A stretch of DNA of 64,000 bases from Dehalococcoidia bacterium (GTDB lineage Bacteria; Chloroflexota; Dehalococcoidia; Bin125). The translations under genes and the position numbers were made by a program. Shown piece after piece: positions 2,161-42,883 of this stretch. The notes beneath the pieces are model-generated. The model had not been told where the DNA came from. It did no database searches and saw nothing but the letters and a program-made list of their open reading frames with translations. Position 1 is the stretch's first letter; every line of letters begins with the position of its first letter. Location of the stretch: assembly GCA_022822855.1 (NCBI GenBank), contig JAJDYG010000009.1, positions 32,460-96,459 of the forward strand. Direction: 5' to 3'.

Positions 2161-2204
2161 TCGTTTGCGCCGTGGTTTTGGGTTGGCGTGTGAGGTGTCA
2201 AATG

Positions 2205-2221
2205 GCTTACACTCTGCCAAT
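2205..2221 (+). promoter_or_regulatory. Conserved motif upstream of SBP gene (CTTACACTCTGCCAATC)
   Basis: Copy 2 of the SBP-upstream motif. Confidence 0.4.
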
Positions 2222-2253
2222 CCAAGGCTGAGCGAGACAATGGGAGGCCCAGG

Positions 2254-7323: not shown

Positions 7324-7363
7324 TCAGCACGCGCCTTAGACGTGCTGAGAAGGAGCGAGATTC

Positions 7364-9376
7364 ATGCCCGAGCGGAACTACTGGCAACGCATTCGACGCA
7401 ACAAGATGAGTCGGCGCGCGCTCTTGCGCGCATCGGGAAGGGCAGGAGTCGGTGCCGCCGGTTTGGCCCTCGTCGGCTGTGGCGGCGACGATGACGACGA
7501 CCAACAGTCCGTTGCTCAGACAGCCGATCAGCAGCAACAGCAGCAGCAGGCCATGCAACAGCAGGCCGATCAGCAGCAGCAACAGCAGGCGATGCAGCAG
7601 CAATCGCAGGAACAGCAAGCTGAGCAGGCTGCACAGCAGGCCGACCAGGAAGAGCAGGAGACGGCAGCCCAGGCCCAACAACAGCAACAGCAACAGGCCG
7701 CCAGCGTCGACCGCTACGGCGGAACACTGCGTTTCTCGACCCCTGCTGCGACCCACGACTTCTTCGACCCACATCGTGGCGTGTTCGGCCCCACCCAGTA
7801 CTGGATGGGGTTCTACATGAACTACATGATCCGCTGGGCCACGAAGGAAGGCGGGGTCATGGAGGAGGACATCACCTCCTTGCCCGAGCTGCCCGATGCC
7901 GAGACCTACATCTTCAGCGTCGACCGAGGCGCGCGCTACTGGGATCAGTACCCCACAGAGGGTGGTCGCGAGGTCACCGCTTCCGACATTCAGCTCAACT
8001 TCGAACGGCAGATCGAGGCGCTCGACGCGGAGGGCAACCCTGACGCCCGCTTCCGCGGCCAGGATGCATTCAAGAAGACCGCCTCGATGGAAGTGCCCGA
8101 CGATGGCACTTTCATCGCCCGCACCGATGGCCCCGATGCGACCTACCTCGGCGGCACCATTCTGCGTCCCTTCTCTTGGATTACCTCACCCGAGGGCATC
8201 CAGGAGTTCGGCACTCGCTGGCGCGACGAGACCGCCAACGTCGAGCTCTCGTCGGGTACCGGGCCGTACATTCCGCAGACCTACGACCCGGACATTGGCA
8301 TCTACCTTGAGCGCAACCCCAACTACTGGAAGAACGCGTCGGATGGCAGCCAGCTGCCGTTCATGGACGCCGTCGAGTTCGTCAACCTGACCGATGCGAC
8401 CGCCGTTGACGCCGCCTATCGCGGCAAGGGCATCGACATCGGTGGATTTCCGCTGTCTGCGGTACAGGTGGAGGAGTTGACCGGTGACTTCCCGGACCAT
8501 GAGGTCCGTGAGGGCGCGTTCGGATTCACCGTCGTCACGGTGATGGGCACGTACCAGCCCGGCTGGGAAGGCTCGGACGGTCTGGGCAATCCTTACCTCG
8601 ACCGGCGCTTCGCGTACGCGATGAACGTGGCGGTCGACCGCGACCTGCTGATCGATGCGGTCTACCTGGGAGCGGCCAAGCCGTCCGCGACACACTTCTG
8701 CCCCTGGTTCTCGACCTACTGGACGATTCCGCCGGAGGAGCTGCGCACGATTCCGGGCTTCCGCCTGAACCGCGACGAGGACATCCAGTTGTGCCGTGAG
8801 TTGATTGCTGCGTCCGGGTTTGACACCGACCGGACAGTCACGATCTACATCCCGGACCTTTGGGAGCAGACCTACCCGGGTATCACCGAGACGACCCGCA
8901 ACATGTACGCCGAGGCGACCGGCATCAACGTCGAGCTGGACATCCAGCCGTACACGGTGATGCAGGACCGCTACGACAACCAGACCTTCCCCGGCCGAGC
9001 GCCGACCTGGACCAACCCTCCGGCCGACCTCGACCCAACCGCGCAGTTCACGCTGTCGCTCAAGGTCGGTGGTGCCTCGAACCTGACCCAGTACAACTAC
9101 GCTCCAACAGAGGAGATCGTTGACGAGATGGCGGTCACGCTGGACACCGAACAGCGCCGCGACATGGGACTCAAGGTGCAGCGAATCGGCCTCGGCGTCG
9201 ATGAAGAGCACGGCCTTGACGGCATCTTCGGCTGGTTCGGTGTGATGAACGGTATCGCGCCGACAATCTGGTGGCCGTACGTCAACCGCCCGGACCACAC
9301 CTGGCAGTTCGCGCACGACTCCCACAACTTCGACACGGCCTGGGTCGACACCCAACACGCCGAGTACCCGGCATAA
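7364..9376 (+). CDS. ABC transporter substrate-binding protein, family 5 (paralog 3)
   Basis: Tat motif plus lipobox, Q-rich linker, and paralogous blocks shared with the other SBPs. Confidence 0.85.
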   Translation: MPERNYWQRIRRNKMSRRALLRASGRAGVGAAGLALVGCGGDDDDDQQSVAQTADQQQQQQQAMQQQADQQQQQQAMQQQSQEQQAEQAAQQADQEEQETAAQAQQQQQQQAASVDRYGGTLRFSTPAATHDFFDPHRGVFGPTQYWMGFYMNYMIRWATKEGGVMEEDITSLPELPDAETYIFSVDRGARYWDQYPTEGGREVTASDIQLNFERQIEALDAEGNPDARFRGQDAFKKTASMEVPDDGTFIARTDGPDATYLGGTILRPFSWITSPEGIQEFGTRWRDETANVELSSGTGPYIPQTYDPDIGIYLERNPNYWKNASDGSQLPFMDAVEFVNLTDATAVDAAYRGKGIDIGGFPLSAVQVEELTGDFPDHEVREGAFGFTVVTVMGTYQPGWEGSDGLGNPYLDRRFAYAMNVAVDRDLLIDAVYLGAAKPSATHFCPWFSTYWTIPPEELRTIPGFRLNRDEDIQLCRELIAASGFDTDRTVTIYIPDLWEQTYPGITETTRNMYAEATGINVELDIQPYTVMQDRYDNQTFPGRAPTWTNPPADLDPTAQFTLSLKVGGASNLTQYNYAPTEEIVDEMAVTLDTEQRRDMGLKVQRIGLGVDEEHGLDGIFGWFGVMNGIAPTIWWPYVNRPDHTWQFAHDSHNFDTAWVDTQHAEYPA

Positions 9377-29926: not shown

Positions 29927-30670
29927 TTGGCCATGGTTCGCAAACGGATGCTCGAGGACGACGCCCGGCGGTTGCTGGGCGGATCGCCGGTGGCGATCGT
30001 CAGCACGAACTGGCGAGGCGTCGGCAATGCGGCGCCGATTGCCTGGTCGATGCCGGTCTCGGTCAATCCGCCCCTGGTCGCGATCGCAGTGCATCCTTCG
30101 CGGCGCACCCACGACATGATCAAGTTTGGGGAAGAGTTCGCGATCAATATCCCATCGAAGGTGCTGCTCAATCACACGCAGTGGCTGGGTATGGTATCGA
30201 ACACGATCGGCGACAAATTAGAAGCATCCCGTGTGCCCTCGTTCAAAGGCAAGGAGATTGATTCACCCTTGCTCGAGGGTTGCATCGGTTGGATTGAATG
30301 TACGCTTCATGACTTCTACACAGTGGGCGATCATACGTTATTCATCGGCAAAGTTGTGTCGGCTCAGGCCGATACGGACGGTTTCGATTTCAACACCGGT
30401 ATGTGGTCGCTGGACGACGATGAGTACAAGCCGCTGATGTACCTGGGCGGCCGCAGCTACAGCATCCTCGACGATCTCTTCGACGCGACGGTCGAGCAAC
30501 GCCCGGTCGAACAGATGCTTGAGGAGGGTATCGGGCGGGAGCTGGAGGAGGCTGAGGCTGAGCGCCGCATCAAGCGCGAGGAAGAAGCCGAGCGTCGTGA
30601 GGAAGAAGAGCGTCGCGGGGAGGCCGAGCCCGATACGTCAAGCCTGCCGCGAGAGCTACCCGATGCGTAG
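29927..30670 (+). CDS. Flavin reductase-like domain protein with Glu/Arg-rich C-terminal tail
   Basis: Flavin reductase-like core (LLGGSPVAIVSTNWRGVGNAAPIAWSMPVS). C-terminal EAEAERRIKREEEAERREEEERRGEAE charged segment. Confidence 0.7.
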   Translation: MAMVRKRMLEDDARRLLGGSPVAIVSTNWRGVGNAAPIAWSMPVSVNPPLVAIAVHPSRRTHDMIKFGEEFAINIPSKVLLNHTQWLGMVSNTIGDKLEASRVPSFKGKEIDSPLLEGCIGWIECTLHDFYTVGDHTLFIGKVVSAQADTDGFDFNTGMWSLDDDEYKPLMYLGGRSYSILDDLFDATVEQRPVEQMLEEGIGRELEEAEAERRIKREEEAERREEEERRGEAEPDTSSLPRELPDA

Positions 30671-32882
30671 TCGCCATGTGCGCCATGTCCCTGTCGAGCT
30701 GGCTGCCGCTGCGTTCATCGTGGTTGCTCTCGTCCTCGTCGCGCTGTCAGGGACTCCAGGTAGCGACCCAACGTCGGCCCAGGACCAAGATGAAGCGGTC
30801 ACGGCGCGGGTCGTGGCCCGAGATGCGACGGGCAACCGAATTGAGTTCGGGATCCGCACTGGGGAAAGGACATACCTTCCCGACGAGCGCTTCATGTCTC
30901 GAAACAGGAGGAGCGTGCGCTGGGCGCAGAGTTCTGAGGTCGTCATCGCGGACGGGCGGGCGCTACATGTGACTGCGCGGCGACTCACGAGCGGCAGCTT
31001 CGAGTTTGGGATTCGCGTCGACGGTGTGACAGAGCGGCTCCTGCCCCAGTCACGTTTCGTATCGGCCGACCGGGACCTCGACGAGTGGCTCGACAGCAGC
31101 CCCGTCACACTGCCACATCCGGAGATACTGCGGACCGTCACGCCTGTCTCGCCGGAATTGCTCGGGCTTGGGAGCAGTCATAGCTGTGCCGTGACGGGCG
31201 ATGGAAGCATCGAGTGCTGGGGTTCCCACGAGTACGGTCAGAATGACCCGCCAGACGGGCAGTTCCTGACGATCAGCGCCGATGCAGTCCAGAGTTGCGC
31301 TTTGAATGTCGGCGGCGGCATCGTCTGCTGGGGCGACAACAGCCTGGGTCAACTCGATGCGCCGGTGGGACGCTATGTTGCGCTCGGCATAGGCGGTGTT
31401 CATGGCTGCGCACTGGATGAGGACGGGGCCATCGATTGCTGGGGACTCGACTTCAATGGGCAGGCAACATCGCCGGAGGGCAGGTTTGTCGCCCTGAGCT
31501 CGGGCACCGGCCACAACTGCGCCATCACCACATCCGGCGAAGTGGAATGCTGGGGCGACAATCTGTGGGGTCAGTCTGACGCTCCCGAGGGGCGCTTCGT
31601 TGCTGTTGACGCGGGAGGCGCCCATAGCTGCGCTCAGGATGCAGCAGGCGCGATTCAATGCTGGGGCTACGGTGGCGATGGTCAGTTGGGCATTCCACCC
31701 GGCCGATACACCAGTTTCGTCGCCGGAGCCTGGCATACCTGTGCCATTGACGGCGACGGTCATCTCGGCTGTTGGGGTTGGGACGGTCACAACCAGAGCA
31801 GTCCGCCGCCGGGATCCTACGCTGCAGTTGGCGCAGGCGGTGCACACACCTGCGGCGTTGCGACCGACGGCAGCGTCCGCTGTTGGGGCTCAAACGGCGC
31901 CGGTCAGACCGAGTCGCCGAGTGGAGAGTTCAGCGAGGTTGTGGCAGGTTTCTTACACACCTGTGCTCTCGACGAGGAGGGCGCCGCCTCATGTTGGGGC
32001 ACAAACGGAGATGGTCAATCGGACGCACCGGAAGGGTCGTTCATCTCAATCGGTCCCGGCCTGTCACATACCTGCGCGGTCGACCAGGACAATGAGTTGG
32101 TCTGTTGGGGCTGGGATGGCTACGGCCAGACCGATGCGCCTGTCAGCGAGCTACCCGAGGATGAATCGCGGTTGGTTCCGTTCAGACTCGGGGACAGCGA
32201 CTGCGAACAGGACGAGTTCGGCGCCTTCAGCAGAGATACCTGTTGGGGCAGCGACGAGGATTCTCCGCTCAGTCCACCGAGGGTAAGTCACTACCAGACG
32301 GTCGGCAGCGGAGGTTCATTCTCTTGCGCCCTCACGCTCAACAACGAGATCGACTGCTGGGGCACCGGGCGAAGCGGGCAACTGGAGTCGCCTTCTGGCC
32401 AGTGGCGGAGGCTGAGCGTCGGCTTTGCGCATGCCTGCGCACTGGACGAAGCTGGCGAGATCACCTGCTGGGGGGCGAACTCATACGGACAGTCTGATGC
32501 GCCGGAAGGGCCATTCGTGTCCATCTCGGCGGGAATCGTGCATACCTGCGCACTTGATGCCGCAGGTCAGGTCACCTGCTGGGGCGACGACGAATACGGA
32601 CAACTCGAGATCACGCCAGGGTCCTACGAAGTCGTGTCGTGCGGCGGGGAACACACTTGCGCGATGACCGCCTCGGGCGAGATCTCCTGCTGGGGACGCG
32701 ACGTCTGGGGTCAGGCGAGCCCGCCTGAAGGCGTGTACACCGCGCTGTCGGTGGGCGCCGAGCACAGTTGCGCCCTGAACGAGGAGGGCGAGATCGTCTG
32801 CTGGGGCATCAACAGGTACGGGAACACCGACGTCCCGGAAGCGCTCCAGCAGCCCGGCGCCGTCTCGGTTGCGAGCGAATAG
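30663..32882 (+). CDS. Membrane-anchored RCC1-repeat (beta-propeller) protein with N-terminal novel tandem repeat module
   Basis: N-terminal TM (AAAFIVVALVLVAL), then two ~55-aa repeats (ARxxxGxxEFGIR...LP..RF). About 15 RCC1-like blades follow, each with H-x-C-A ... C-W-G-x-(N/D)-x-x-G-Q. Start at the ATG overlapping the upstream stop. Confidence 0.8.
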   Translation: MRSRHVRHVPVELAAAAFIVVALVLVALSGTPGSDPTSAQDQDEAVTARVVARDATGNRIEFGIRTGERTYLPDERFMSRNRRSVRWAQSSEVVIADGRALHVTARRLTSGSFEFGIRVDGVTERLLPQSRFVSADRDLDEWLDSSPVTLPHPEILRTVTPVSPELLGLGSSHSCAVTGDGSIECWGSHEYGQNDPPDGQFLTISADAVQSCALNVGGGIVCWGDNSLGQLDAPVGRYVALGIGGVHGCALDEDGAIDCWGLDFNGQATSPEGRFVALSSGTGHNCAITTSGEVECWGDNLWGQSDAPEGRFVAVDAGGAHSCAQDAAGAIQCWGYGGDGQLGIPPGRYTSFVAGAWHTCAIDGDGHLGCWGWDGHNQSSPPPGSYAAVGAGGAHTCGVATDGSVRCWGSNGAGQTESPSGEFSEVVAGFLHTCALDEEGAASCWGTNGDGQSDAPEGSFISIGPGLSHTCAVDQDNELVCWGWDGYGQTDAPVSELPEDESRLVPFRLGDSDCEQDEFGAFSRDTCWGSDEDSPLSPPRVSHYQTVGSGGSFSCALTLNNEIDCWGTGRSGQLESPSGQWRRLSVGFAHACALDEAGEITCWGANSYGQSDAPEGPFVSISAGIVHTCALDAAGQVTCWGDDEYGQLEITPGSYEVVSCGGEHTCAMTASGEISCWGRDVWGQASPPEGVYTALSVGAEHSCALNEEGEIVCWGINRYGNTDVPEALQQPGAVSVASE

Positions 32883-33726
32883 AGCTTTGACTCAGGAGAT
32901 CGTGCGCAGGATCGTTGAGGGCGACAACCTGCCAATCCTGCAGGGGTTGCCCAATGAGAGCGTGCAGCTCGCATACACCGATCCGCCGTTCAACACCGGC
33001 AATGTGCGGACGTATCAGCGATTTCGGACAACCCAAGATGAACAGGGCGACCGTACCGGATTCGGTGGTCGCCGATACCGCTCTGAGGAGACATCGTCGC
33101 ACTCGTACTCCGATGCGTTCGAGGAGTACATCGGCTTTCTCGCTCCCAGGCTCGCCGAGATCTGGCGGGTCTTGCGCTTGGATGGAACCCTGTATCTGCA
33201 CCTCGACGCACGCGAGGTCCACTATGTGAAAGTCTTGCTCGACAGCATCTTCGGTCGCGACTGCTTTCTCAATGAAATCGTCTGGGCTTATGACTTTGGC
33301 GGCCGGCCCAAACGGCGTTGGCCGGCCAAACATGACAACATCCTGGTCTACGTCAAGGATCGGGAGCAGTACGTGTTCAACCGAGACGAGATCGATCGCA
33401 TTCCCTATCTGGCGCCGGGCTTGGTTGGGAAGGAGAAGGCAGCGCGAGGGAAACTGCCGACGGATGTCTGGTGGCACACGATCGTCGGGACCAGCGCCAA
33501 GGAACGGACCGGATATCCGACGCAGAAGCCCGTTGCACTGGCGGAGCGGATCATTCGGGCGTCCAGCGATGCGGGGGAATTGGTGCTCGATCCGTTCGCC
33601 GGCAGCGGGACCGTCGGCGCGGCCTCAGCGCATCTCGGTCGCCGATACCTATTGGTCGACAGCAATCCCGAGGCTGTCGCGGTGATGTCGGAGCGATTGC
33701 CCGACGCCGAGGTGGTCAGACCGTGA
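32869..33726 (+). CDS. DNA methyltransferase (N6-adenine/N4-cytosine, beta-class), apparently orphan
   Basis: Motif IV TDPPFNTG precedes motif I PFAGSGT near the C-terminus. The start overlaps the RCC1 gene end. No restriction enzyme gene is adjacent. Confidence 0.8.
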   Translation: MRANRALTQEIVRRIVEGDNLPILQGLPNESVQLAYTDPPFNTGNVRTYQRFRTTQDEQGDRTGFGGRRYRSEETSSHSYSDAFEEYIGFLAPRLAEIWRVLRLDGTLYLHLDAREVHYVKVLLDSIFGRDCFLNEIVWAYDFGGRPKRRWPAKHDNILVYVKDREQYVFNRDEIDRIPYLAPGLVGKEKAARGKLPTDVWWHTIVGTSAKERTGYPTQKPVALAERIIRASSDAGELVLDPFAGSGTVGAASAHLGRRYLLVDSNPEAVAVMSERLPDAEVVRP

Positions 33727-34771
33727 TATTCGGCGCGCATTCCTGCATGAACAGACTCATCGACTTCGTCACCTGATCGTGCGGCACCATTCCTCCTGGG
33801 TTGCACCAGGTGAGGAAGTGACCGACTCCGTAACGCTCGCTCAAGGCTGAGAGCTTGGCCGTGACCTCGTCCGGATTGCCGATCGCGCAGAGCTTGTCGA
33901 CGACCTCTTCGTAGGTGGCGTTTCGATTCCGAGCCAGCAGTGGGGGCAGGTCATTGGGGTCGCCGCCGCGTCGGGTCCAGCCGCGGAAGCCGGTATCACT
34001 GACGACCTTCATGTAGCTCATCATGCTTGCTTCGACTTCCGCCCTTGCAGTTTCCGACGACTCGTGGACATGCACCGGCAGCAACAGTCCGGCGTCAGAC
34101 GCGGTCGCGTCGGGCCGCGCCTGCCAGTACATCTCGAAGCGGCGATCGAGATCTTCGTCGAATGCGGTGATCGGACTTGCGAACACCCGCCACTGCTCGT
34201 CGCTGGCTCGTACGAACGATTCGTCGCTATTCGCCGCCATCCGTAGCGGCGGTCCCGGACGCTGGATCGGCTTTGGCACGACTTGCACGTTGCGGTAGCT
34301 GAAGTGGTCGCCCTCGAAGTTGACGGGACCATCGGCCCAGGCCTGCTGGATCACGGCCAGCGCCTCGTTGAAGCGTCCGGCGCGGTCGGCCATGCGCACA
34401 TTGAACCCGGCGAAGTGCTCGGCGATGCTCCCGCGTCCGATGCCGAACTCGAGCCGACCACCGGAAATGATGTCGACTGTGGCGGCATCTTCAGCGGCGC
34501 GAATCGGATCGGACAGGGCGAGCAGCGCGACTCCGGTGCCCAGGCGGATCCGTTCAGTCTGCGACGCTGCCGCCGCCATGGTCACCATCGGCGACGGCAG
34601 CACGGAGAATTCGCGGACGAAGTGCATCTCGGCCAGCCAGGCGGCATCCCAGCCGATCCGGTCGCCGTGGACAATCTGGGCGATGGTGTCGCGATAACGC
34701 CGCGGCACGTCCTGCCCGTCGGCCTGGGGTAGCTGGAAGAAGAGCCCGAACTCTGCAGGTTGGCCCGGCAT
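33716..34771 (-). CDS. LLM-class flavin-dependent oxidoreductase (luciferase-like monooxygenase)
   Basis: Luciferase-like monooxygenase N-terminal pattern (FGLFFQLP..., AEMHF). The 3' end overlaps the MTase 3' end by 11 nt (convergent). Confidence 0.8.
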   Translation of the reverse strand: MPGQPAEFGLFFQLPQADGQDVPRRYRDTIAQIVHGDRIGWDAAWLAEMHFVREFSVLPSPMVTMAAAASQTERIRLGTGVALLALSDPIRAAEDAATVDIISGGRLEFGIGRGSIAEHFAGFNVRMADRAGRFNEALAVIQQAWADGPVNFEGDHFSYRNVQVVPKPIQRPGPPLRMAANSDESFVRASDEQWRVFASPITAFDEDLDRRFEMYWQARPDATASDAGLLLPVHVHESSETARAEVEASMMSYMKVVSDTGFRGWTRRGGDPNDLPPLLARNRNATYEEVVDKLCAIGNPDEVTAKLSALSERYGVGHFLTWCNPGGMVPHDQVTKSMSLFMQECAPNITV

Positions 34772-34888
34772 CGTCGCCCTCCGCTCTTCCCAGCTTCGGA
34801 TAGTGGCAGGCTAACCGACGACCTCATGGGCAGACCTCACAGACCTATACTCGACGCCAGAACGCAAGAGGCATGAGAGGGTCCGACG

Positions 34889-35476
34889 ATGACCACCGCC
34901 ACATACACGGTCCAAGATTTTGTCAGGGATGCTCAGCGGATTGTTGATCGGGGCGATTCGGGGGATCAACAGATTGCTCAGATCGCCGGACCGTTGGAGC
35001 GGTTGATCCAACGCAAGGACTGTTTGCTCGACCTGCCGGAGTGCGATGACGCGGATCCGGAACAGGGCTTCATCATTCATCGCTCCGACAATCTGACCGT
35101 CTCGGCCGTCGTCTGGCAGCCAGATTCGGGCGCACCGATCCACAATCACAACGGCTGGGCGATGGAGGGCGTAATCTCAGGCGTTGAGCTAAATCGCAAC
35201 TACCAGCGCATTGACGACGGATTAACGCCCTGGCGCGCTGAGTTGGAAGAACTGGAACCATCGCTCGTGCCGGCCGGCACGACGACCTACCTGCGCGAAC
35301 CGCCGGCGGACATCCACGCAGTGGAGATCAACCAGGGCAAGACCCTCGCGATCCACGTATACGGACTCGACCTGCTCCGCCAGTGGCGCTACCGCTTCAA
35401 CCTGGAAACCGGCGAGGTCGAACCGTTTGGCATGCGGACTCGCCGCCAGCTCGACAGCGCGCAACAAGCGAAGTAG
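34889..35476 (+). CDS. Cupin domain protein (cysteine dioxygenase type I-like)
   Basis: PIHNHNGWAMEGVISG cupin motif with His residues. Confidence 0.5.
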   Translation: MTTATYTVQDFVRDAQRIVDRGDSGDQQIAQIAGPLERLIQRKDCLLDLPECDDADPEQGFIIHRSDNLTVSAVVWQPDSGAPIHNHNGWAMEGVISGVELNRNYQRIDDGLTPWRAELEELEPSLVPAGTTTYLREPPADIHAVEINQGKTLAIHVYGLDLLRQWRYRFNLETGEVEPFGMRTRRQLDSAQQAK

Positions 35477-35512
35477 AGGGTCAGCAGCGACGACCGACTC
35501 GGGAGGTTCACA

Positions 35513-36292
35513 ATGGGCAAGCTTGACGGACAGGTCGCGCTGATATCCGGCGCCGCGCGAGGTCAGGGCGAAGCACAGGCTCGGCTGTTCGCTCGCGAGG
35601 GCGCCGCTGTCGCGCTCGGTGATGTGCTTGTGGAAGATGGCCAGCGCGTCGCCGAAAGCATCAATGACACGGGCGGCCAGGCGATGTTCCAGAAGCTCGA
35701 TGTGACCGAAGTGTCGAGCTGGAAGTCGATGGTCGATGAGACCCTGGCCCAGTTTGGCCGGTTGGACATTGTGGTCAACAACGCCGGCATCGCCAGGGTG
35801 AAGCTGATCGAAGAATCGTCGCTCGAGGAGTATCTCGAGGTGGTCCGGATCAACCAGCTCGGCGTCTGGCTGGGGATGAAGGCGGCGATTCCCGCGCTCA
35901 AGGAAGCCGGAGGCGGTTGCATCATCAACACCTCCTCAACCGCAGGCCTCGAGGGCTATTCGGGTCTCGGCGCGTACGTGTCGTCGAAGTTCGCCGTGCG
36001 CGGGATGACCAAGGTCGCGGCCATCGAGCTGGGGCCATACAACATTCGCGTCAACTCGGTGCATCCCGGACCAATCGACACACCGATGATCCGCGATCCG
36101 CAGATTGCTCGAAGCGGAGACCAGGACTTTGACATCGCGCGAACGTCGCCGATCCCCCGAGTCGGGCATGTGGACGAAGTCGCTGCGATGATGCTATTCA
36201 TCGCAGCCGACGCGACGTACAGCACCGGTTCGGAGTTCGTAATCGACGGCGGCGTCACAGCCGGTTCGACGATCGCTCGGTCCAACGACTGA
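35513..36292 (+). CDS. SDR family oxidoreductase
   Basis: GAARGQG Rossmann motif, NNAG, and YVSSKFAV (YxxxK). Confidence 0.85.
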   Translation: MGKLDGQVALISGAARGQGEAQARLFAREGAAVALGDVLVEDGQRVAESINDTGGQAMFQKLDVTEVSSWKSMVDETLAQFGRLDIVVNNAGIARVKLIEESSLEEYLEVVRINQLGVWLGMKAAIPALKEAGGGCIINTSSTAGLEGYSGLGAYVSSKFAVRGMTKVAAIELGPYNIRVNSVHPGPIDTPMIRDPQIARSGDQDFDIARTSPIPRVGHVDEVAAMMLFIAADATYSTGSEFVIDGGVTAGSTIARSND

Positions 36293-36362
36293 TGCGGATC
36301 ATGGTCGGGCCAACGAGATTCCCGCGTTCGCGGAATGAAGAAACTGGATGGGTAGGAGCGAC

Positions 36363-37133
36363 ATGGGCAAGTTAGATGGACAGGTTGCGCTGATCTCGGG
36401 CGGCGCGCGAGGTCAGGGTGAGCAACAAGCACGCCTCTTTGCTCGTGAAGGGGCGGCAATCGCGATCGGCGATGTGCTCGAGGAAGACGGCAACCGCGTC
36501 GCCGAGAGCATCAACGACACCGGCGGCCAGGCGATGTTCCGCAAGCTGGACGTCGCCGACCAGTCGAGCTGGGCCGAGATGGTCGATGCGACGACGGAGC
36601 AATTCGGCAAACTGAACATCCTAATCAACAACGCCGGGATCCTGCGCAACGGGTCTATCGAGGACACGACTGTGCAGGAGTACCTGGAGGTGATCAAGAT
36701 CAACCAGGTCGGTGTCTGGCTGGGCATCCGCGCAGCGATCAAACCGATGCGCGAAGCCGGCGGCGGCTGCATCATCAACACTTCGTCGACGGCCGGTCTC
36801 GAAGGGTATCCAGATTCCAGCGCCTATGTCTCGTCCAAATTTGCCGTAACCGGCCTGACAAAGGTCGCCGCGTTGGAGCTGGGACCGTACAACATCCGCG
36901 TCAACTCGGTCCATCCCGGTCCGATCGATACGCTGATGACGGCCCCCCCAGGCACCCCGCGACGTCCGAACGGCGACATCCCGGTGAACCTGGTGCTGAC
37001 CCGTTTCGGCCACGCCGACGAGGTGGCCAAGATGATGCTCTTCATCGCCGCCGAGGCCACCTACAGCACGGGCGCCGAGTTCGTCATCGACGGAGGCCTG
37101 ACGGCGGGTCGGTCGCTTCAGGTCGGGGAGTAG
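36363..37133 (+). CDS. SDR family oxidoreductase (tandem paralog)
   Basis: Strong similarity to 35513-36292 (MGKLDGQVALISGGARGQGE...). Confidence 0.85.
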   Translation: MGKLDGQVALISGGARGQGEQQARLFAREGAAIAIGDVLEEDGNRVAESINDTGGQAMFRKLDVADQSSWAEMVDATTEQFGKLNILINNAGILRNGSIEDTTVQEYLEVIKINQVGVWLGIRAAIKPMREAGGGCIINTSSTAGLEGYPDSSAYVSSKFAVTGLTKVAALELGPYNIRVNSVHPGPIDTLMTAPPGTPRRPNGDIPVNLVLTRFGHADEVAKMMLFIAAEATYSTGAEFVIDGGLTAGRSLQVGE

Positions 37134-37145
37134 CGGACTCGCTCG

Positions 37146-37505
37146 CTAACTCCTCTGTATCGGCTTCGCGAACGAGATCTCGTGGCCGTCCGGGTCGACG
37201 ATGTGGAAGTAGCGCTCCCGCCAGGGTGCGTCTCGCGGCTCGGCCTCGGGAGTCAGGCCGGCGCTGACGGCGTTCGCGTGGAAGGCATCGACGTCGTCGA
37301 CATAGAAGATCGCTCGTCCCCAGAAGCCTGAACCGTGGTCGGCGGCGATCAGGTTGAGATAGCTCTGACCGGCTCGGTACGAGGTGAACCCTGCATCGTG
37401 GCCGCCGTATATCTTCTCGAAGCCCAGTGCCTCGTAGAACGCCGTGGCCGCCGACATATCGCCGACCGCCAGCGTGACCGCGCTCAGCGCCGTGACCTGC
37501 GGCAT
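37146..37505 (-). CDS. VOC (glyoxalase/bleomycin-resistance) family protein
   Basis: Small protein of the right size for a VOC fold. It sits adjacent to a second, similar gene. Confidence 0.65.
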   Translation of the reverse strand: MPQVTALSAVTLAVGDMSAATAFYEALGFEKIYGGHDAGFTSYRAGQSYLNLIAADHGSGFWGRAIFYVDDVDAFHANAVSAGLTPEAEPRDAPWRERYFHIVDPDGHEISFAKPIQRS

Positions 37506-37507
37506 GG

Positions 37508-37918
37508 TCAGGTGAGGTCCGTGAACGGGTTGTAGGCCAGTTCCCAGAGGTAGCCGTCGGGGTCGCTGAAGTATCCCGCATACCCGCCCCAGAAGACTTC
37601 CCTTGGCGGCTGAACGGGTGTCGCGCCTGCCTCAACTGCTTCCCGCATCGTGGAGTCGACCGCCTCGCGCGAGGGCAGGTTGTGAGCCAAGGTGATGGTC
37701 GGCGTGCCGGCCGACGGTTGGGCGAAGTCGACCGGCGCTTCGTCACGAAACAGCTCTCGTCGATAGAGCGCCAGCGTGATGTTCTCCAGCTCGAGGAACA
37801 CGATGTTCTCGAAGCTGTCGTCGTCGCGCATCGGCCAGCCCAGTCCGTCGCGGTAGAAGCGGACGGAAGCGTTGAGGTCGGATACTCCGAGCGTGATGAT
37901 GCTGATCTTGGGTTTCAT
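37508..37918 (-). CDS. VOC (glyoxalase/bleomycin-resistance) family protein
   Basis: Small protein of the right size for a VOC fold. The ITLGVSDL start is typical of this family. Confidence 0.65.
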   Translation of the reverse strand: MKPKISIITLGVSDLNASVRFYRDGLGWPMRDDDSFENIVFLELENITLALYRRELFRDEAPVDFAQPSAGTPTITLAHNLPSREAVDSTMREAVEAGATPVQPPREVFWGGYAGYFSDPDGYLWELAYNPFTDLT

Positions 37919-37938
37919 GGGATCAGCGTAGCGTCGAT

Positions 37939-39036
37939 CTACGGGGTTGCAGCTTCCACGCGCCGCCTGATGCCATCGAAACTCGTCCCCGCGTTGATCC
38001 CGTTGACATGAACCACGGGACCGTATCTGATTCCAATCGCCGCTGCGTCACGGACAATCTGGTTATGAGCCTGGCGCGTGGCCGGATCGTCGTAGCACCG
38101 CTCGAAGCTGTCGGTGTCGAGCCCGATCTCACCGGCATAGTCAATGAGCTGGTCGCGCGAAGCTGCACGGCTGCCGTCAACAAGGAACCGATCATGGAAC
38201 TCCCAGAAGGCGGCGCCGCTTTGCTCGGTGGCGCAGACCATCGCATAGCCGACCCGCTCGGACGCCGCGCCGACGTAGGCGATGTTGACGAACTGGAACC
38301 GGGCGATGCCGGTGCGGACGTACTCTTCAATCACGCGCGGCTCAACCTGAGTCGCGATTCTGCGGCAGTTTGGTCAAAACGGATCGCCGTACTCGACAAT
38401 CAGCACCGGCGCATCCGGATCGCCGACGATGCTGCCTTCCACGATCAGGCCGTCGCGGTGGGTCCCGCTGATTCTCTCCACGTCGGATGCTTCGGTCGTC
38501 CCTTCCCCGGTGTCGTCGTCCGTATCGTCTGGTTCAGGCACCGATTCAGGCAGTGACTCGGGCTCGTCGTGTTCGTCGTCCTGTTCGCGAGCAGGCAGCA
38601 GGATCGGCGTGCTCGAGCGCCACGCTCCTACGGTCGACGCGCGCGGGAAGTACCGCCTCGTGGGCAGGAACTCCTGTCGCGGCTCGTCAATCCTAAGGCC
38701 GAACTCGACCCGAGTCTCGCCGTTGCGGCGGGCAATGACTCGTACCTCAGTGCCGTCCGACAGTTCGACGAGGGAACTCTCTCTCCAGCCTTCGTCGCTG
38801 ATAGCGGCCGAGAAGACGCGCAGACGCGGCAGTTGGTTGCCTTCTGAGGTTCGCAGCCCGAACTCGATGTCGCCGTCAACCTGGAGCCGGGCGATGATCC
38901 GGACCGTTTCCCCGCCCTCGGAGCCGTGCCCGCTGATTGCGATCAGGCTGGCCAGCGATGACACAGCGATCAGCGCGAGCAGATTGATGGTTCGAATGGC
39001 GCTTGCGCGAATCATGGTGTCCGGATCATAAGACAA
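37939..39036 (-). CDS. DsbA/BdbD-like thiol-disulfide oxidoreductase interrupted by an in-frame TGA at the first Cys of the CxxC motif (candidate selenoprotein U-P-N-C, or pseudogene)
   Basis: Two ORFs (38374-39036 and 37939-38334) lie in the same frame, separated by 13 sense codons after a TGA at 38374-38376. The junction reads APVLIVEYGDPF-[TGA]-PNCRRIATQVEPRVIEEYVRTGIARFQFVNIAY. This matches the DsbA/BdbD active-site region (VEFGDY-C-PSC...FSFVNV). The N-terminal part has a TM plus the tandem repeat module also seen in the RCC1 protein. Confidence 0.6.
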
Positions 39037-39094
39037 GGGGCGGGGCGAATGCCCCGCCCCTTGCCTGGCGGTTCGTTGAACCGGGTGTCCGGAG

Positions 39095-40387
39095 CTAGAA
39101 CGCCAACGGCGCCGGGTCGGCCTGGCCGGTCTCCATGCCCTGCGGCCACCAGTGGTCTTCCCAACCTTCGTCGTCCCAGATGTGCTTGAGGTTGGGCAGC
39201 ACCTGCTGGGCGGTCATCTCGATGTTGGGGATGGCCAGTTCCTTGGGAATCGAGCCGAACTGGTTGAGGATCATCAGGTGTCCGACGTGGAGCGTGCGAA
39301 TCACTTCCTCGAGCTGTTCGGTGACCTGGCTCGGCGTGCCGGCGACGATGTTGCCTTCGCGGATCAGGTCGGCCCAGGTGATCTCGGAGTTGGCCTTGGA
39401 TTCGACCATCTTCTCGGCGGTTTTCTCGCCTTCGAACTTCTTCGAGTCGCCGAAGACCGGCTTGAGGCCCTGACTGCGAGTGAAACCCTGCTCGATGGTG
39501 CGGACGGTCCGATAGCCGGGCGGGTCGGCGTAGCGCGGGTCGATGTGGAGCATCTTGTTGTAGAAGTACTCCGCGTGCGGCCCGAACTTGTCGGCCACTT
39601 CCTGCTCGGTTTCGCCGACGGCGACGAGCTGGAGGAATCCGGCGTGGTACGGGTTGAGCGGCTTCTCGCGCTGCTGCATCGTGCGCCAGAATCCGTCGAC
39701 GTTCTTCTGACCGGCCTTGTAGCCGCCGTAGGAGAGGTAGCAGTAGACGTAGTTGTGGTCGGCGCACCACTCCCAGGTCTCGACCGAGCCGCCGCCGGGA
39801 ATCCAGACGGGCGGGTGCGGCTGCTGGATCGGTCGCGGCCAGATGTTGATGTAGCGCAGCTGGTTGTAGCGGCCGTTGTAGGAGAAGACCTCGGGCCGCG
39901 TCCAGGCCTGCGTGATCACATCGGCGGCCTCGTAGTACTTGTCGCGCAGGTGCGACGGGTTGGCGCCGTAGCAGAAGCAGTCGTCCATCGGCGTGCCGAC
40001 GGGGAAGCCGGCGACGAGGCGACCGCCCGAGATGCAGTCGAGCATCGCGAACTCTTCGGCGACGCGAGTTGGCGGGTTGTAGAGCGCAATCGAGTTGCCG
40101 AGCACGACGATCGCGACGTCCTTGGTGCGCCGGCAGAGGTTGGCGGCCATCAGGTTGGGCGACGGCATCAGGCCGTAGGCGTTCTGGTGGTGCTCGTTGA
40201 TGCAGATGCCGTCGTAGCCGGCAGCAGCGGCGGCCTCGAGCTCGTCCAGGCCGTCGTTGTACATCTCGTGCGCCTTGGCCGGGTCGAACAGCTTGGAGTC
40301 GACGTCTACCCAGACCGAGTTGTTCGTCTCTGCGAAGTCGGGCGGCAGATCCCGATACGGCATCAGATGGAAGAACTCAAATTTCAC
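39095..40387 (-). CDS. LLM-class flavin-dependent oxidoreductase (luciferase-like)
   Basis: Luciferase-like monooxygenase family pattern (MKFEFFHLMPY..., GGRLVAGFPVGT). Confidence 0.8.
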   Translation of the reverse strand: MKFEFFHLMPYRDLPPDFAETNNSVWVDVDSKLFDPAKAHEMYNDGLDELEAAAAAGYDGICINEHHQNAYGLMPSPNLMAANLCRRTKDVAIVVLGNSIALYNPPTRVAEEFAMLDCISGGRLVAGFPVGTPMDDCFCYGANPSHLRDKYYEAADVITQAWTRPEVFSYNGRYNQLRYINIWPRPIQQPHPPVWIPGGGSVETWEWCADHNYVYCYLSYGGYKAGQKNVDGFWRTMQQREKPLNPYHAGFLQLVAVGETEQEVADKFGPHAEYFYNKMLHIDPRYADPPGYRTVRTIEQGFTRSQGLKPVFGDSKKFEGEKTAEKMVESKANSEITWADLIREGNIVAGTPSQVTEQLEEVIRTLHVGHLMILNQFGSIPKELAIPNIEMTAQQVLPNLKHIWDDEGWEDHWWPQGMETGQADPAPLAF

Positions 40388-40597
40388 GGCGTACTCCGTT
40401 CGGTTCCACGTTCACAGCATCGCCCATCCGGCAGGCGGTCTCTGGGGCAAGGTATTGAAGAAGGTGCGTCAGTGTCAATCAGCGTCGCGCTCCATCAGGT
40501 GTGGAAGAGGTGGTGGAACCGGGGCGCGGCGACCGAGGTGAGCTGCCTGGAGGCGGCCCCCGGGGCCGCCCTCACAGGCGGACGCGGTGAAGACTCC

Positions 40598-42613
40598 TTA
40601 GGCCGAGTACTCCGGATGCGTCGTGTCAAGCCAGGTGTCGTCGTAGCGATGCGAGGCATGGGCGAACTGGTAGACGTCCTCGGAGTTGTGCACGTAGGGC
40701 CACTCGACCTGCGGCGAAATGGCGTTCATCACGGACGGCTGACCGGTCATCCCCTCAACCCCATGGTCGGGATGGACACCGAGGAAGATCTTGAGCAGTT
40801 CGGAGGCTGTCTCCTTGCGTTTGTCGACATCGAGTTCGGTCCGCATGCCCCTGATCATCTCCTCCGCAGGCGGGTAGTTGTACTGCGAGAAGTTGGAGCT
40901 GCCACCGGCGACGTGAGTGATGTTCCACTCACCGGTCGGGTCAAGGTCTTGCGGCGGGTTGGTCCAGGCTGGCGTTTGGCCGGGGTGGGTGCCCTCCAGC
41001 AGACGCTGAAGAATGACGGTGTACGGCTGGATGTCCATCGACAGCGTGACCCCCAAGGCCTGCTCGTACATCGAGCGCACCGTCTCCGTGATGCCCGGAT
41101 AGGTCTGTTCCCAGACGTCCGGCGTGATCCAGTAGAAGGTCCGGCTGTCGCGATCGACGCCCGCGGCATCCAGCAGTTCATTCGCCATCTGGATGTCGGC
41201 ATCGCGATTCGGCCGGTATCCGGGCCACGTGGCGAGTTCTTCGGGCGGGACCGTCCAGGCCTGGTTGAACCACGGTGCCTGAGCGATCGCGCTGATCTTG
41301 GCCGAGCCCAGGTAGACGGCATCGATCAACAGGTAGCGGTCGGTGGCCACGTGGAAGGCATAGGCCAAACGACGGTCCGCCCACGGATTGCCCAGTCCAT
41401 CCTCACCCGGCCAGTCCGGGTTGAAGTTGTAGCGGATCTGAATCGTGAAACCGAAGGGAACGTCGAAGACGTTGTGTTCGGGGAAGTCGCTCAGAATGCC
41501 CTCAACCTGCAGGCTCGAAAGCGGGAATCCGCCAATGTCGATCCCCTTGCCGCGATACGCGGCGTCGACAGCAGTCGCGTCGACGAGGTTCGTGAACTCG
41601 ACCCGATCCAGATATGGCAGCGCGCCGCCGTCTGCCCCGTTCTTCCAGTAGTTCGGGTTGACATCGAGATTGATGCCAAGGTCCGGGTCGTAGTTGAGCG
41701 GCATGTACGCTCCCGTGCCGGAAGAGAGCTCGACGTTCGTCTGCTCGTCACGCCAGCGGTTACCGAACTCGGTGATCGCCTCGGGTGAGGTGATCCAGGA
41801 GAACGGGCTCAGGTGCGCGCCCAGATAGGTCGAGTCAGGCTCGGCGGTCGTGTAGGTAATCGTCGTGTCATCGACGACTTCGAGCTTGTCCGTCTGCTGG
41901 TATTTGCTCGCGGTCAGGAATGACGTGTCCTCAACGCCGTCCGCGTCAACGGAATCGATCTGCCGCTGAGAGTTGAATCGAATATCCTCCGCCGTGACCA
42001 GCCGTCCACCCTCCGTCGGGTAGCGGTCCCAGAACCGCGCGCCCTGGTCGACGCTGAAGATGTAGGTGGTGTCGTCGGGAATCTCTGGCAGCGACGCAAT
42101 GTCGCTCTCCATGATTCCCTTTTCCTTGTTTCGCCAGCGGATGAGGTAGTTCATGTAGAACCCCATCCAGAACTGGGTCGGACCGAACACCGCGCGGTGC
42201 GGATCGAAGTAATCGTGGGTGGCCGCCGGAGTCGAGAAGCGAAGCGTGCCGCCTCTTGTCAGGCCTGAGGTGTCGGCGACGGCCTGCTGTTGCGCCTGAT
42301 CCGCTTGGTCCTGTTGAGTCTGCTCTTGCTGATCAGCCTGCGAGGCCGACTGGTCGGCCTGTTGCTCCTGGTCCTGCTGCATGGCCTGTTGCTGTTGTTG
42401 CTGCATGGCCTGCTGTTGCGCGGCTTGCTGTTGCGCTTGCTGCTGTTGTTGCGCAGCGGTGACGGCCTGCTGGCCGTCGTCGTCATCGTCGCCGCAACCG
42501 ACCAACGCGAGGCCAGCCGCGCCGACACCGGCGCGCGACGAGGCTCGCAGGAGCGAACGCCTGCTCATTCGCTTACGCGCCATTCGCTGCCAGTAGTTCT
42601 GTCGCTCGGTCAT
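40598..42613 (-). CDS. ABC transporter substrate-binding protein, family 5 (paralog 4)
   Basis: Same Tat/lipobox N-terminus (NYWQRMARKRMSRRSLLRASSRAGVGAAGLALVGCGDDDDD), Q-rich linker and paralogous blocks. It stands alone with no adjacent permeases. Confidence 0.85.
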   Translation of the reverse strand: MTERQNYWQRMARKRMSRRSLLRASSRAGVGAAGLALVGCGDDDDDGQQAVTAAQQQQQAQQQAAQQQAMQQQQQQAMQQDQEQQADQSASQADQQEQTQQDQADQAQQQAVADTSGLTRGGTLRFSTPAATHDYFDPHRAVFGPTQFWMGFYMNYLIRWRNKEKGIMESDIASLPEIPDDTTYIFSVDQGARFWDRYPTEGGRLVTAEDIRFNSQRQIDSVDADGVEDTSFLTASKYQQTDKLEVVDDTTITYTTAEPDSTYLGAHLSPFSWITSPEAITEFGNRWRDEQTNVELSSGTGAYMPLNYDPDLGINLDVNPNYWKNGADGGALPYLDRVEFTNLVDATAVDAAYRGKGIDIGGFPLSSLQVEGILSDFPEHNVFDVPFGFTIQIRYNFNPDWPGEDGLGNPWADRRLAYAFHVATDRYLLIDAVYLGSAKISAIAQAPWFNQAWTVPPEELATWPGYRPNRDADIQMANELLDAAGVDRDSRTFYWITPDVWEQTYPGITETVRSMYEQALGVTLSMDIQPYTVILQRLLEGTHPGQTPAWTNPPQDLDPTGEWNITHVAGGSSNFSQYNYPPAEEMIRGMRTELDVDKRKETASELLKIFLGVHPDHGVEGMTGQPSVMNAISPQVEWPYVHNSEDVYQFAHASHRYDDTWLDTTHPEYSA

Positions 42614-42883
42614 GTCGTCCCTCCATCTCCGTTGGTCGGGAAAATTCTAGGGAATTCTGACCGGGCCTGTTCGCCTCGGTGCCCACCGACACCACCCACT
42701 GCATCGTGAGCGTCCCCCAAAAGAGGCGTGCGCGTGCAGAGAGGATGATGCCCAACAGCGCTCAACCGCCGGGAGCGCACCCAGAACCCTGCAAACTCAC
42801 CCAATATCCACCGGAGCGGAGCCTCATCCCATGGCAAGCAAGCCCATCTGCACAAGTTCCGGGAGTGCAGATGAGGAGAGAGT

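Follow-up and report, generated by a model that had tools for sequence, protein, structure and literature searches.

Small modules that hold exported proteins at the bacterial surface are well represented among described domain families—SLH (PF00395), LysM, SH3b, CWB1/CWB2, PG_binding_1, SPOR, and LGFP are all repeated, non-catalytic, and present many times per genome. Those that bind the wall of Gram-positive bacteria stand at either end of exported proteins and are joined to varied partners, Amidase_3 hydrolases included. In a survey of cell-wall hydrolases, the wall-binding domains LysM, SLH, SPOR, SH3, CWB1/2, and PGB1 are listed alongside PF01520 (PMC6403190). Here we describe a module with the same general traits (small, repeated, non-catalytic, many per genome, at either end of exported proteins, with varied partners that include Amidase_3) that is carried by two proteins encoded in a 64,000-nucleotide stretch of a Dehalococcoidia bacterium (GenBank assembly GCA_022822855.1, contig JAJDYG010000009.1, positions 32,460 to 96,459 of the forward strand). 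We refer to this whole stretch as the window; one of the two proteins has an RCC1-repeat beta-propeller and the other a DsbA-like thioredoxin fold.

The likeness to the known modules is one of architecture. The new module has no sequence match to SLH, LysM, SH3b, or the CWB modules, its repeats are strictly paired, and any binding to the wall is something that we infer from how the proteins are built. Its predicted fold is also distinct: a two-repeat beta-sandwich, as opposed to the helical SLH domain, the beta-alpha-alpha-beta arrangement of LysM, and the SH3 barrel. In the PF01520 hydrolases, the module takes the position that cell wall-binding domains hold in the survey cited above. A second point of comparison is the set of eukaryotic-like proteins of sponge symbionts (ANK, LRR, fn3, cadherin), in which sponge-associated Acidimicrobiia are reported to be enriched (PMC11706023). 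The partners of the module include these classes, whereas the module is an accessory domain and not one of those repeat types.

A module shared by two proteins of the window

The RCC1 protein is encoded on the plus strand at 30663..32882, in an open reading frame (ORF) that runs from an ATG at 30663 to a stop codon ending at 32882 and specifies 739 amino acids (aa) plus the stop. Its translation opens with a basic and hydrophobic segment (MRSRHVRHVPVELAAAAFIVVALVLVALSG; 30663..30752, plus strand), hydrophobic over residues 12-30, that may be a signal peptide or a signal anchor. Two repeats follow on the same strand, recognised by sequence comparison and profile match: repeat 1 (EAVTARVVARDATGNRIEFGIRTGERTYLPDERFMSRNRRSVRWAQSSEVVIADG) at 30792..30956 and repeat 2 (RALHVTARRLTSGSFEFGIRVDGVTERLLPQSRFVSADRDLDEWLDSSPVTLPHP) at 30957..31121. 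The partner region, at 31122..32879 (plus strand), was assigned with Pfam; the C-terminal 580 residues of the 739-aa protein belong to the RCC1-repeat beta-propellers, with RCC1_2 (PF13540) scoring 280.5 bits in 14 stretches (cut-off 22) and WD40_RLD (PF25390) scoring 185 bits in four stretches (cut-off 150), the best of them at residues 426-725. An exact-sequence lookup of this protein returned no record.

The gene for the DsbA-like protein lies on the minus strand at 37939..39015 and encodes about 358 aa when it is read through an in-frame TGA, an extent based on the ORFs, their common frame, and orthologues. The probable start is an ATG at 39015, while the ORF itself opens at a TTG at 39036; the N-terminus is fixed by the orthologues P0002, P0338, and P0339. 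The translated N-terminal hydrophobic segment (MIRASAIRTINLLALIAVSSLASLIAISG; 38929..39015, minus strand) contains no cysteine and hence no lipobox. Sequence comparison, profile match, and the AlphaFold2 (AF2) model place repeat 1 (GETVRIIARLQVDGDIEFGLRTSEGNQLPRLRVFSAAISDEGWRESSLVELSDG) at 38752..38913 and repeat 2 (TEVRVIARRNGETRVEFGLRIDEPRQEFLPTRRYFPRASTVGAWRSSTPILLPAR) at 38587..38751, both on the minus strand; an acidic linker and then the thioredoxin-fold part come after the module. The GC content at third codon positions is 0.72 in the RCC1 gene, a typical value for the window, and since the same holds for the DsbA-like gene, neither gene looks foreign.

Both proteins thus have one layout: after an N-terminal hydrophobic segment come two repeats of about 55 aa, the first starting no more than about 12 residues on. 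A first interpretation of the window, made from the letters alone (the sequence-only reading), had placed tandem repeats of this length in the two proteins; each of the four was recovered, at most some 90 bases from the position it gave. It had also called the N-terminal segment a transmembrane helix; the hydrophobic segment is there, and it may instead be a signal peptide that is cleaved. The two double repeats align over 105 positions without gaps at 36% identity (38/105), with a score of 64.7 bits and an E-value of 6e-20 in BLASTP with compositional adjustment, and the two repeats inside the RCC1 protein match each other at E 8e-9. The proteins share the same homologous module. No further copy was found in any frame of the window.

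At 64% GC and with an Arg-rich module, the window is a setting in which two Arg/Gly-rich coding sequences could come to resemble each other by composition, but we consider the chance of this to be vanishingly small. The E-value of 6e-20 was reached despite the compositional adjustment. In addition, when a profile was built from 143 family members whose identity to either window copy is below 45%, the two window modules scored 108 and 101 bits with it (E 2.6e-26 and 3.2e-24, respectively, in a library of 1.84 billion proteins); because it was made without the window copies or their close relatives and still matches both, the test is free of circularity. The significance that the sequence-only reading had made decisive for its claim is upheld by these scores. 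Conserved positions and spacing in 601 representatives at E<=1e-10, together with a confident predicted fold common to both copies, speak for the same conclusion, and coincidence was excluded on these four grounds.

Family organisation and predicted fold

To gauge the family, a five-repeat profile was compared exhaustively with 1.84 billion protein cluster representatives; 1,189 of these match at E<=1e-3, and the 601 mentioned above at E<=1e-10. The family came to light only in this exhaustive profile search—when the four window repeats were used in a word-indexed homology search, P0001 was the sole protein recovered. The family consensus, vRIvARrladGRiEFGlq...LPr.RfFPa.a.vgRWL.SSp, agrees with the pattern ARRxxxGxxEFG(I/L)Rxx(E/D)GxxxLPxxR(F/Y)x(6-9)Wx(1-2)SSx(V/I)xL that had been drawn from the window copies. 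The module is rich in arginine (13.5%) and has a median pI of 10.5, inside proteins that are otherwise acidic (-4.3 net charge per 100 aa).

Exactly two adjacent repeats occur in 131 of the best 150 of the 1,189 matches and four in another 11, while a single repeat was seen once; the unit is therefore the tandem pair. Profiles of first and of second repeats are nearly interchangeable, matching each other with an hhalign probability of 99.9% (E 1.2e-33), and repeats of different proteins have the same mean identity (0.49) in like and in unlike pairings. Inside one protein, the median identity of the pair is 58%, and 39 of 129 pairs reach at least 70% (the module pairs in L002-L016 are examples). 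Homogenisation of this kind in an old and diverse family suggests that the two halves have repeatedly arisen by fresh duplication or have undergone gene conversion with each other.

Structure prediction from family alignments gave confident all-beta models for both window copies, with a predicted local distance difference test score (pLDDT) of 94.8 and a predicted template modelling score (pTM) of 0.86 for the RCC1 module, and 95.1 and 0.87 for the DsbA-like module. Each repeat contributes a long hairpin and short strands in both models; repeat 1 of the RCC1 module, residues 1-55 of the model, has strands at 4-13, 16-23, 26-28, and 34-36. The high pTM indicates a single globular domain, and the tandem pair is accordingly predicted to be one all-beta, sandwich-like or barrel domain of about 110 residues. 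The proposal that the module might form a discrete fold is thus borne out by the models, with one amendment: the two repeats are present as described, and the functional unit is the pair that they build together, not each repeat independently.

Is the module a named family after all? By HMM-to-sequence comparison with Pfam, NCBIfam, and PDB sequences, where HMM stands for hidden Markov model, it is a previously uncurated family. The best window match in Pfam-A (2025) has an E-value of 0.022 and falls below the cut-off, and when 64 family modules were scanned at E<=1, no Pfam family was matched by more than two of them. On 126, 24, and 74 full-length proteins, only partner domains recur in Pfam; in NCBIfam (2026), no match covering the module recurs, with two isolated matches at chance level. 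The Pfam models for SLH, LysM, SH3b, CWB1/2, PGB1, SPOR, and LGFP do not match it, and the profiles found nothing better than E 0.16 among all PDB sequences. Across about 120 database matches, the module is covered neither by precomputed Pfam matches nor by source names, the sole source name on any relative being 'hypothetical protein'. Literature searches found no description of the module, including in the literature on eukaryotic-like proteins of sponge symbionts; for RCC1 proteins of these symbionts nothing relevant was found, and RCC1 has no occurrence in the sponge-symbiont literature retrieved.

The HMM-to-sequence type of these library searches leaves some room for a divergent member of an already named family to have been missed, and the weak fold neighbours of the module are generic beta-sandwiches and barrels (C2, YEATS, FAIM, and the Alt a 1/PevD1/Tsp1 group). 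With at most two of 64 members matching any one Pfam family at E<=1, no NCBIfam family, nothing better than E 0.16 in the PDB sequences, and no coverage by precomputed Pfam matches or source names in about 120 matches, we regard this explanation as improbable. The first impression that the module fits no family one could name has therefore stood, for the window copies and for the 64 members alike. Fold comparison found no close solved relative. Tsp1, PevD1, and Alt a 1 (small secreted fungal-effector proteins with a beta-barrel or sandwich) and a domain of the Sulfolobus S-layer protein SlaA are structural neighbours; however, identity to them is 3-9%, they come from fungi and archaea, and nothing indicates a common origin or function. 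These neighbours are too distant for a claim of kinship.

The organisation of the family bears on a further explanation—that the module associates surface proteins with one another, through homo-oligomers, a scaffold in the manner of cohesin and dockerin, or an S-layer-like lattice. The strict pairing of near-equivalent repeats, as similar between proteins when unlike as when like, resembles a fused homodimer, and a single-repeat protein (P0001) exists. The frequent homogenisation of the two halves is also in keeping with docking, and the resemblance to the SlaA domain is a hint in this direction. The loci, however, showed no candidate scaffold partner or conserved neighbour gene, and we judge a docking role to be quite unlikely. 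A sorting signal at the protein terminus was a candidate as well; it was rejected, the module being a folded 110-aa domain that is found at either end of proteins.

Partners, placement, and a possible role at the envelope

Placement was counted in the best 150 of the 1,189 matches. An N-terminal hydrophobic signal or anchor segment is present in 125 of them, and in 94 the module begins a median of 13 residues after it. The module ends within 15 residues of the C-terminus in 30 proteins, of which 20 have it behind an N-terminal hydrophobic signal segment; several of these C-terminal-module proteins show cleavage sites of the AxA|Q type. An internal position is seen in seven. P0044 is an apparently complete protein that consists of a signal peptide and the module alone.

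More than 20 different partner domains are joined to the module, which may be N-terminal, C-terminal, or internal to them. RCC1 is the commonest, at about half, and since it is found on either side of the module, the module must have been shuffled repeatedly. In 126 smaller representatives, Pfam recognises RCC1 in 34, LRR in 7, Flg_new_2 in 6, Trypsin_2 in 4, and ankyrin in 3, with fn3, Big_9, He_PIG, SLH, and CAP in one or two each. A set of 24 large proteins (up to 4,152 aa) has RCC1 in 10, fn3 in 5, and LRR in 4, and adds cadherin, SWM_repeat, Spondin_N, PD40, and CARDB. Of the 74 genomic ORFs examined, 36 contain RCC1, two each contain Amidase_3 and SLH, and Peripla_BP_6, CAP, and PLDc were each found once; some 30 are without a known domain. 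In one of the Amidase_3 proteins (L005:4964-6478), the module is the only other domain. No catalytic domain of a glycoside hydrolase, lyase, or sulfatase is among the partners listed, and this absence of polysaccharide-degrading partners argues against a carbohydrate-binding module that targets enzymes to their substrates, a candidate that was rejected for this reason.

Some of these proteins deserve a separate word. Four giant surface proteins, P0017 (4152 aa), P0146 (3217), P0023 (2493), and P0012 (2117), carry four module repeats at one end (three were detected in P0146), combined with arrays of fn3, cadherin, LRR, or RCC1. Two proteins of about 900 aa (L044:3482-6214 and L052:3821-6448) have a sub-threshold match to the M6 (immune inhibitor A-like) metalloprotease family TIGR03296, at 27-29 bits with a cut-off of 110.8. 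A partner class of about 600 aa, with the module at the C-terminus, has no match in Pfam, NCBIfam, or PDB sequences.

To learn which taxa have the module, one genome of each GTDB species was scanned with a pattern tuned to one subfamily, and the resulting picture is biased to that extent. The scan yielded 124 confirmed sites. All classified genomes are metagenome-assembled genomes (MAGs) of Acidimicrobiales/Acidimicrobiia or Dehalococcoidia/Chloroflexota, and two further MAGs are unclassified. Acidimicrobiales genomes of 3.3-3.7 Mb have at least 12-15 module genes each, often as tandem paralogues, a number per genome comparable to the repertoires of known anchoring modules. Tandem arrays in Acidimicrobiales were seen at L005:3791-8397, at L006:3791-6670, and in L033, L034, L036, L040, L046, L053, and L056; one array has an RCC1 gene, an Amidase_3 gene, and a third module gene in a row, and others pair two of the ~600-aa proteins, in which the C-terminal module is the only domain that can be recognised. 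Taken together, the module is exported, autonomous, promiscuously fused, terminally placed, and expanded within genomes. In this respect the sequence-only reading, which had seen in two unrelated fusions a portable extracytoplasmic domain for anchoring or recognition, has been confirmed on the first two counts: the partner survey ranges from RCC1, LRR, ankyrin, fn3, cadherin, and CAP to trypsin-like proteases, Amidase_3, and a solute-binding protein, and these partners are surface or secreted domains.

Between anchoring and recognition, the partner repertoire favours anchoring. Our preferred proposal, to which we give not quite an even chance, is that the module serves as a non-covalent retention module of the cell envelope in bacteria without an outer membrane. 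It would be exported together with its host protein in cells of Chloroflexota and Acidimicrobiia, and would there bind a component of the cell's own envelope—peptidoglycan, a secondary wall or S-layer glycopolymer, or anionic membrane lipids. Such binding would keep at the cell surface exported proteins that are otherwise soluble. In the window, it would tether the RCC1 beta-propeller and the thioredoxin-fold (probably selenocysteine-containing) oxidoreductase; elsewhere, LRR, ankyrin, fn3, cadherin, and CAP proteins, proteases, a peptidoglycan amidase, and a solute-binding protein may be held in the same way. LRR, ankyrin, fn3, cadherin, and CAP are repeat-protein types mainly of eukaryotes.

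We favour envelope retention because several partners—the Amidase_3 amidase, the Peripla_BP_6 solute-binding protein, the Trypsin_2 proteases, and the DsbA-like oxidoreductase of the window—are envelope housekeeping proteins that need a tether in cells without a periplasm. The absence of polysaccharide-degrading catalytic partners counts in its favour too, as does the Arg-rich, basic character of the module within acidic proteins, in lineages (Acidimicrobiia and Chloroflexota) that are regarded as lacking an outer membrane. A homologue of the DsbA-like protein with cysteine at the redox site (P0337) has an N-terminal transmembrane anchor and no module, and the nearest NCBIfam relative is a lipoprotein family; this suggests that anchors of different kinds are interchangeable in this protein.

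Several observations weigh against retention. In about 63% of surveyed proteins, a hydrophobic segment stands immediately before the module; left uncleaved, it would already be an anchor, and a second one would be redundant. A few proteins carry SLH, as a separate partner domain, in addition to the module, and P0044, with its signal peptide and nothing but the module, could be a free binding protein with no less reason than an anchor. The module is only mildly positive in net charge, with a median of +2 and no more than +1 in each window copy. Lastly, the taxa come from the one-subfamily scan, which does not establish that the module is restricted to bacteria without an outer membrane.

If the module acted in recognition or adhesion, it would bind, like a lectin, the matrix or glycans of a host such as a sponge, or other cells, and would not anchor the protein to its own cell. 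The partners are in fact dominated by adhesion and interaction repeats (RCC1, LRR, ankyrin, fn3, cadherin, Spondin_N, CAP), sponge-associated Acidimicrobiia are, as cited above, reported to be rich in eukaryotic-like proteins (PMC11706023), the secreted module-only protein P0044 would suit such a role, and sugar binding would be in keeping with the conserved Trp and Arg residues. Fusions to Amidase_3, a solute-binding protein, and a DsbA-like oxidoreductase, however, make little sense for a host-binding tag, and the interaction repeats could themselves be the part that recognises. Many genomes with matches bear isolate names (several of the types SB06xx_bin, IRC*_bin, and APA_bin) that probably belong to MAG sets derived from sponges, which would favour recognition, but searches by accession and isolate name found nothing that confirms a sponge or other host origin. 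We therefore think recognition unlikely, and envelope retention continues to be the reading that we prefer.

A broader version of the retention proposal, which we put forward as doubtful, is that the module acts as a common 'address tag' for surface display, peculiar to symbionts without an outer membrane (sponge-associated Chloroflexota and Acidimicrobiia), built on a new fold of duplicated ~55-residue units and directed to a lineage-specific wall or S-layer polymer. RCC1, LRR, ankyrin, fn3, cadherin, and CAP proteins would be fixed to the bacterial surface in this way, along with a few envelope enzymes. If this were true, it would account for the display of eukaryotic-like proteins to host cells. 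Confirmation of retention in itself would mean that a family of about 1,200 clusters (at 50% identity) joins the few modules by which cells that lack an outer membrane keep exported proteins at their surface, and would supply a new module type for two poorly studied, mostly uncultivated lineages. It would also offer one sequence handle on the surface proteome, including the RCC1, LRR, ankyrin, and fn3 proteins that are suspected of a part in sponge host interaction. The family deserves a curated profile, as present annotations of its proteins name just the partner domain or call them hypothetical.

The in-frame TGA and neighbouring genes

The thioredoxin-fold part of the DsbA-like protein after the TGA (37942..38373, minus strand) was identified with Pfam PF13462 (31.8 bits, cut-off 23.2) and PF01323 (30.8 bits, cut-off 25.6). 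These Thioredoxin_4 and DSBA HMMs, and the alignment of F-TGA-P-N-C with SCPHC in the homologue P0337, assign it to the DsbA-like thioredoxin-fold proteins. The label 'DsbA-like' given on first inspection is therefore right as to the fold; what it had not brought out is that the protein appears as two ORFs, 39036-38374 and 38334-37939, in one frame and parted only by the TGA at 38376-38374. The nearest named relative of this part is the Rcas_1661 thioredoxin-like (seleno)lipoprotein family (NF041057), and the window protein falls outside it, the two ORF parts scoring 65.5 and 14.9 bits with a cut-off of 190. In common with that family and with DsbA-like selenoproteins, the window protein has a TGA in place of the first redox Cys; in contrast to the Rcas_1661 lipoproteins, it has no lipobox, and a signal segment and the module replace the N-terminal anchor region. 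Relatives of the thioredoxin part at 79-81% identity bear the NCBI source name 'Chloroflexi bacterium'.

The TGA (38374..38376, minus strand) occupies the first position of the redox motif F-U-P-N-C, replacing the first Cys of the CxxC motif, and is probably a selenocysteine codon. It is conserved, with the frame continuing beyond it, in L078 (836-895) and L079 (2751-2797). Nine representatives, all with pairwise identities below 50%, stop at ...YGDPF or ...FGDPF just ahead of the TGA (P0013 at ...YGDPL), and in more than 60 clusters of the C-terminal part the called gene begins only downstream of it. The in-frame UGA is thus kept in orthologues and aligned with Cys in a homologue, which is the pattern expected of a selenoprotein. 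A pseudogene was considered for the split gene and rejected because the TGA is conserved in more than 60 clusters.

A hairpin, CGCGACUCA-GGU-UGAGCCGCG, that starts 17 nt after the TGA (38336..38356, minus strand; centroid structure) is a candidate bacterial selenocysteine insertion sequence (SECIS). In L078 the corresponding hairpin has a perfect 9-bp stem, with -19 kcal/mol and a z-score of -2.95; in the window and in L079 the candidate does not surpass shuffled sequences in stability, and comparison with Rfam gave no match. There are no tRNA genes in the 64-kb window. On the sequence evidence, we conclude that the DsbA-like gene probably encodes a selenoprotein, a thioredoxin-fold protein with selenocysteine, and that it is most likely systematically split and mis-annotated as two genes by gene callers—in L077, the equivalent gene is called as pieces of 213 and 131 aa. 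The finding flags a widespread thioredoxin-fold protein whose gene is cut in two in this way.

Around the DsbA-like gene (33716-40411), the gene order is a luciferase-like monooxygenase, the module-DsbA gene with its TGA, two glyoxalase-fold genes, and two short-chain dehydrogenases; the same order is found on a Logan contig (SRR16351696) and an ENA contig (L077, L079). Beside the RCC1 gene, an ORF for an N6/N4-type DNA methyltransferase (32869-33726, plus strand) starts 14 bases before the RCC1 stop codon. It has a DPPFNT motif, and the equivalent gene in L077 matches PF01555; no restriction enzyme partner was noticed adjoining it. Further away lie four paralogous ORFs of about 680 aa, at 3-2099, 2194-4269, and 7349-9376 on the plus strand and 40598-42646 on the minus strand. 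Their shared N-terminal pattern, NYWQR..R..MSRR.LLRASGRAG, is reminiscent of a twin-arginine signal. Some of them adjoin permease-like ORFs, and the four are presumably solute-binding proteins of ABC transporters.

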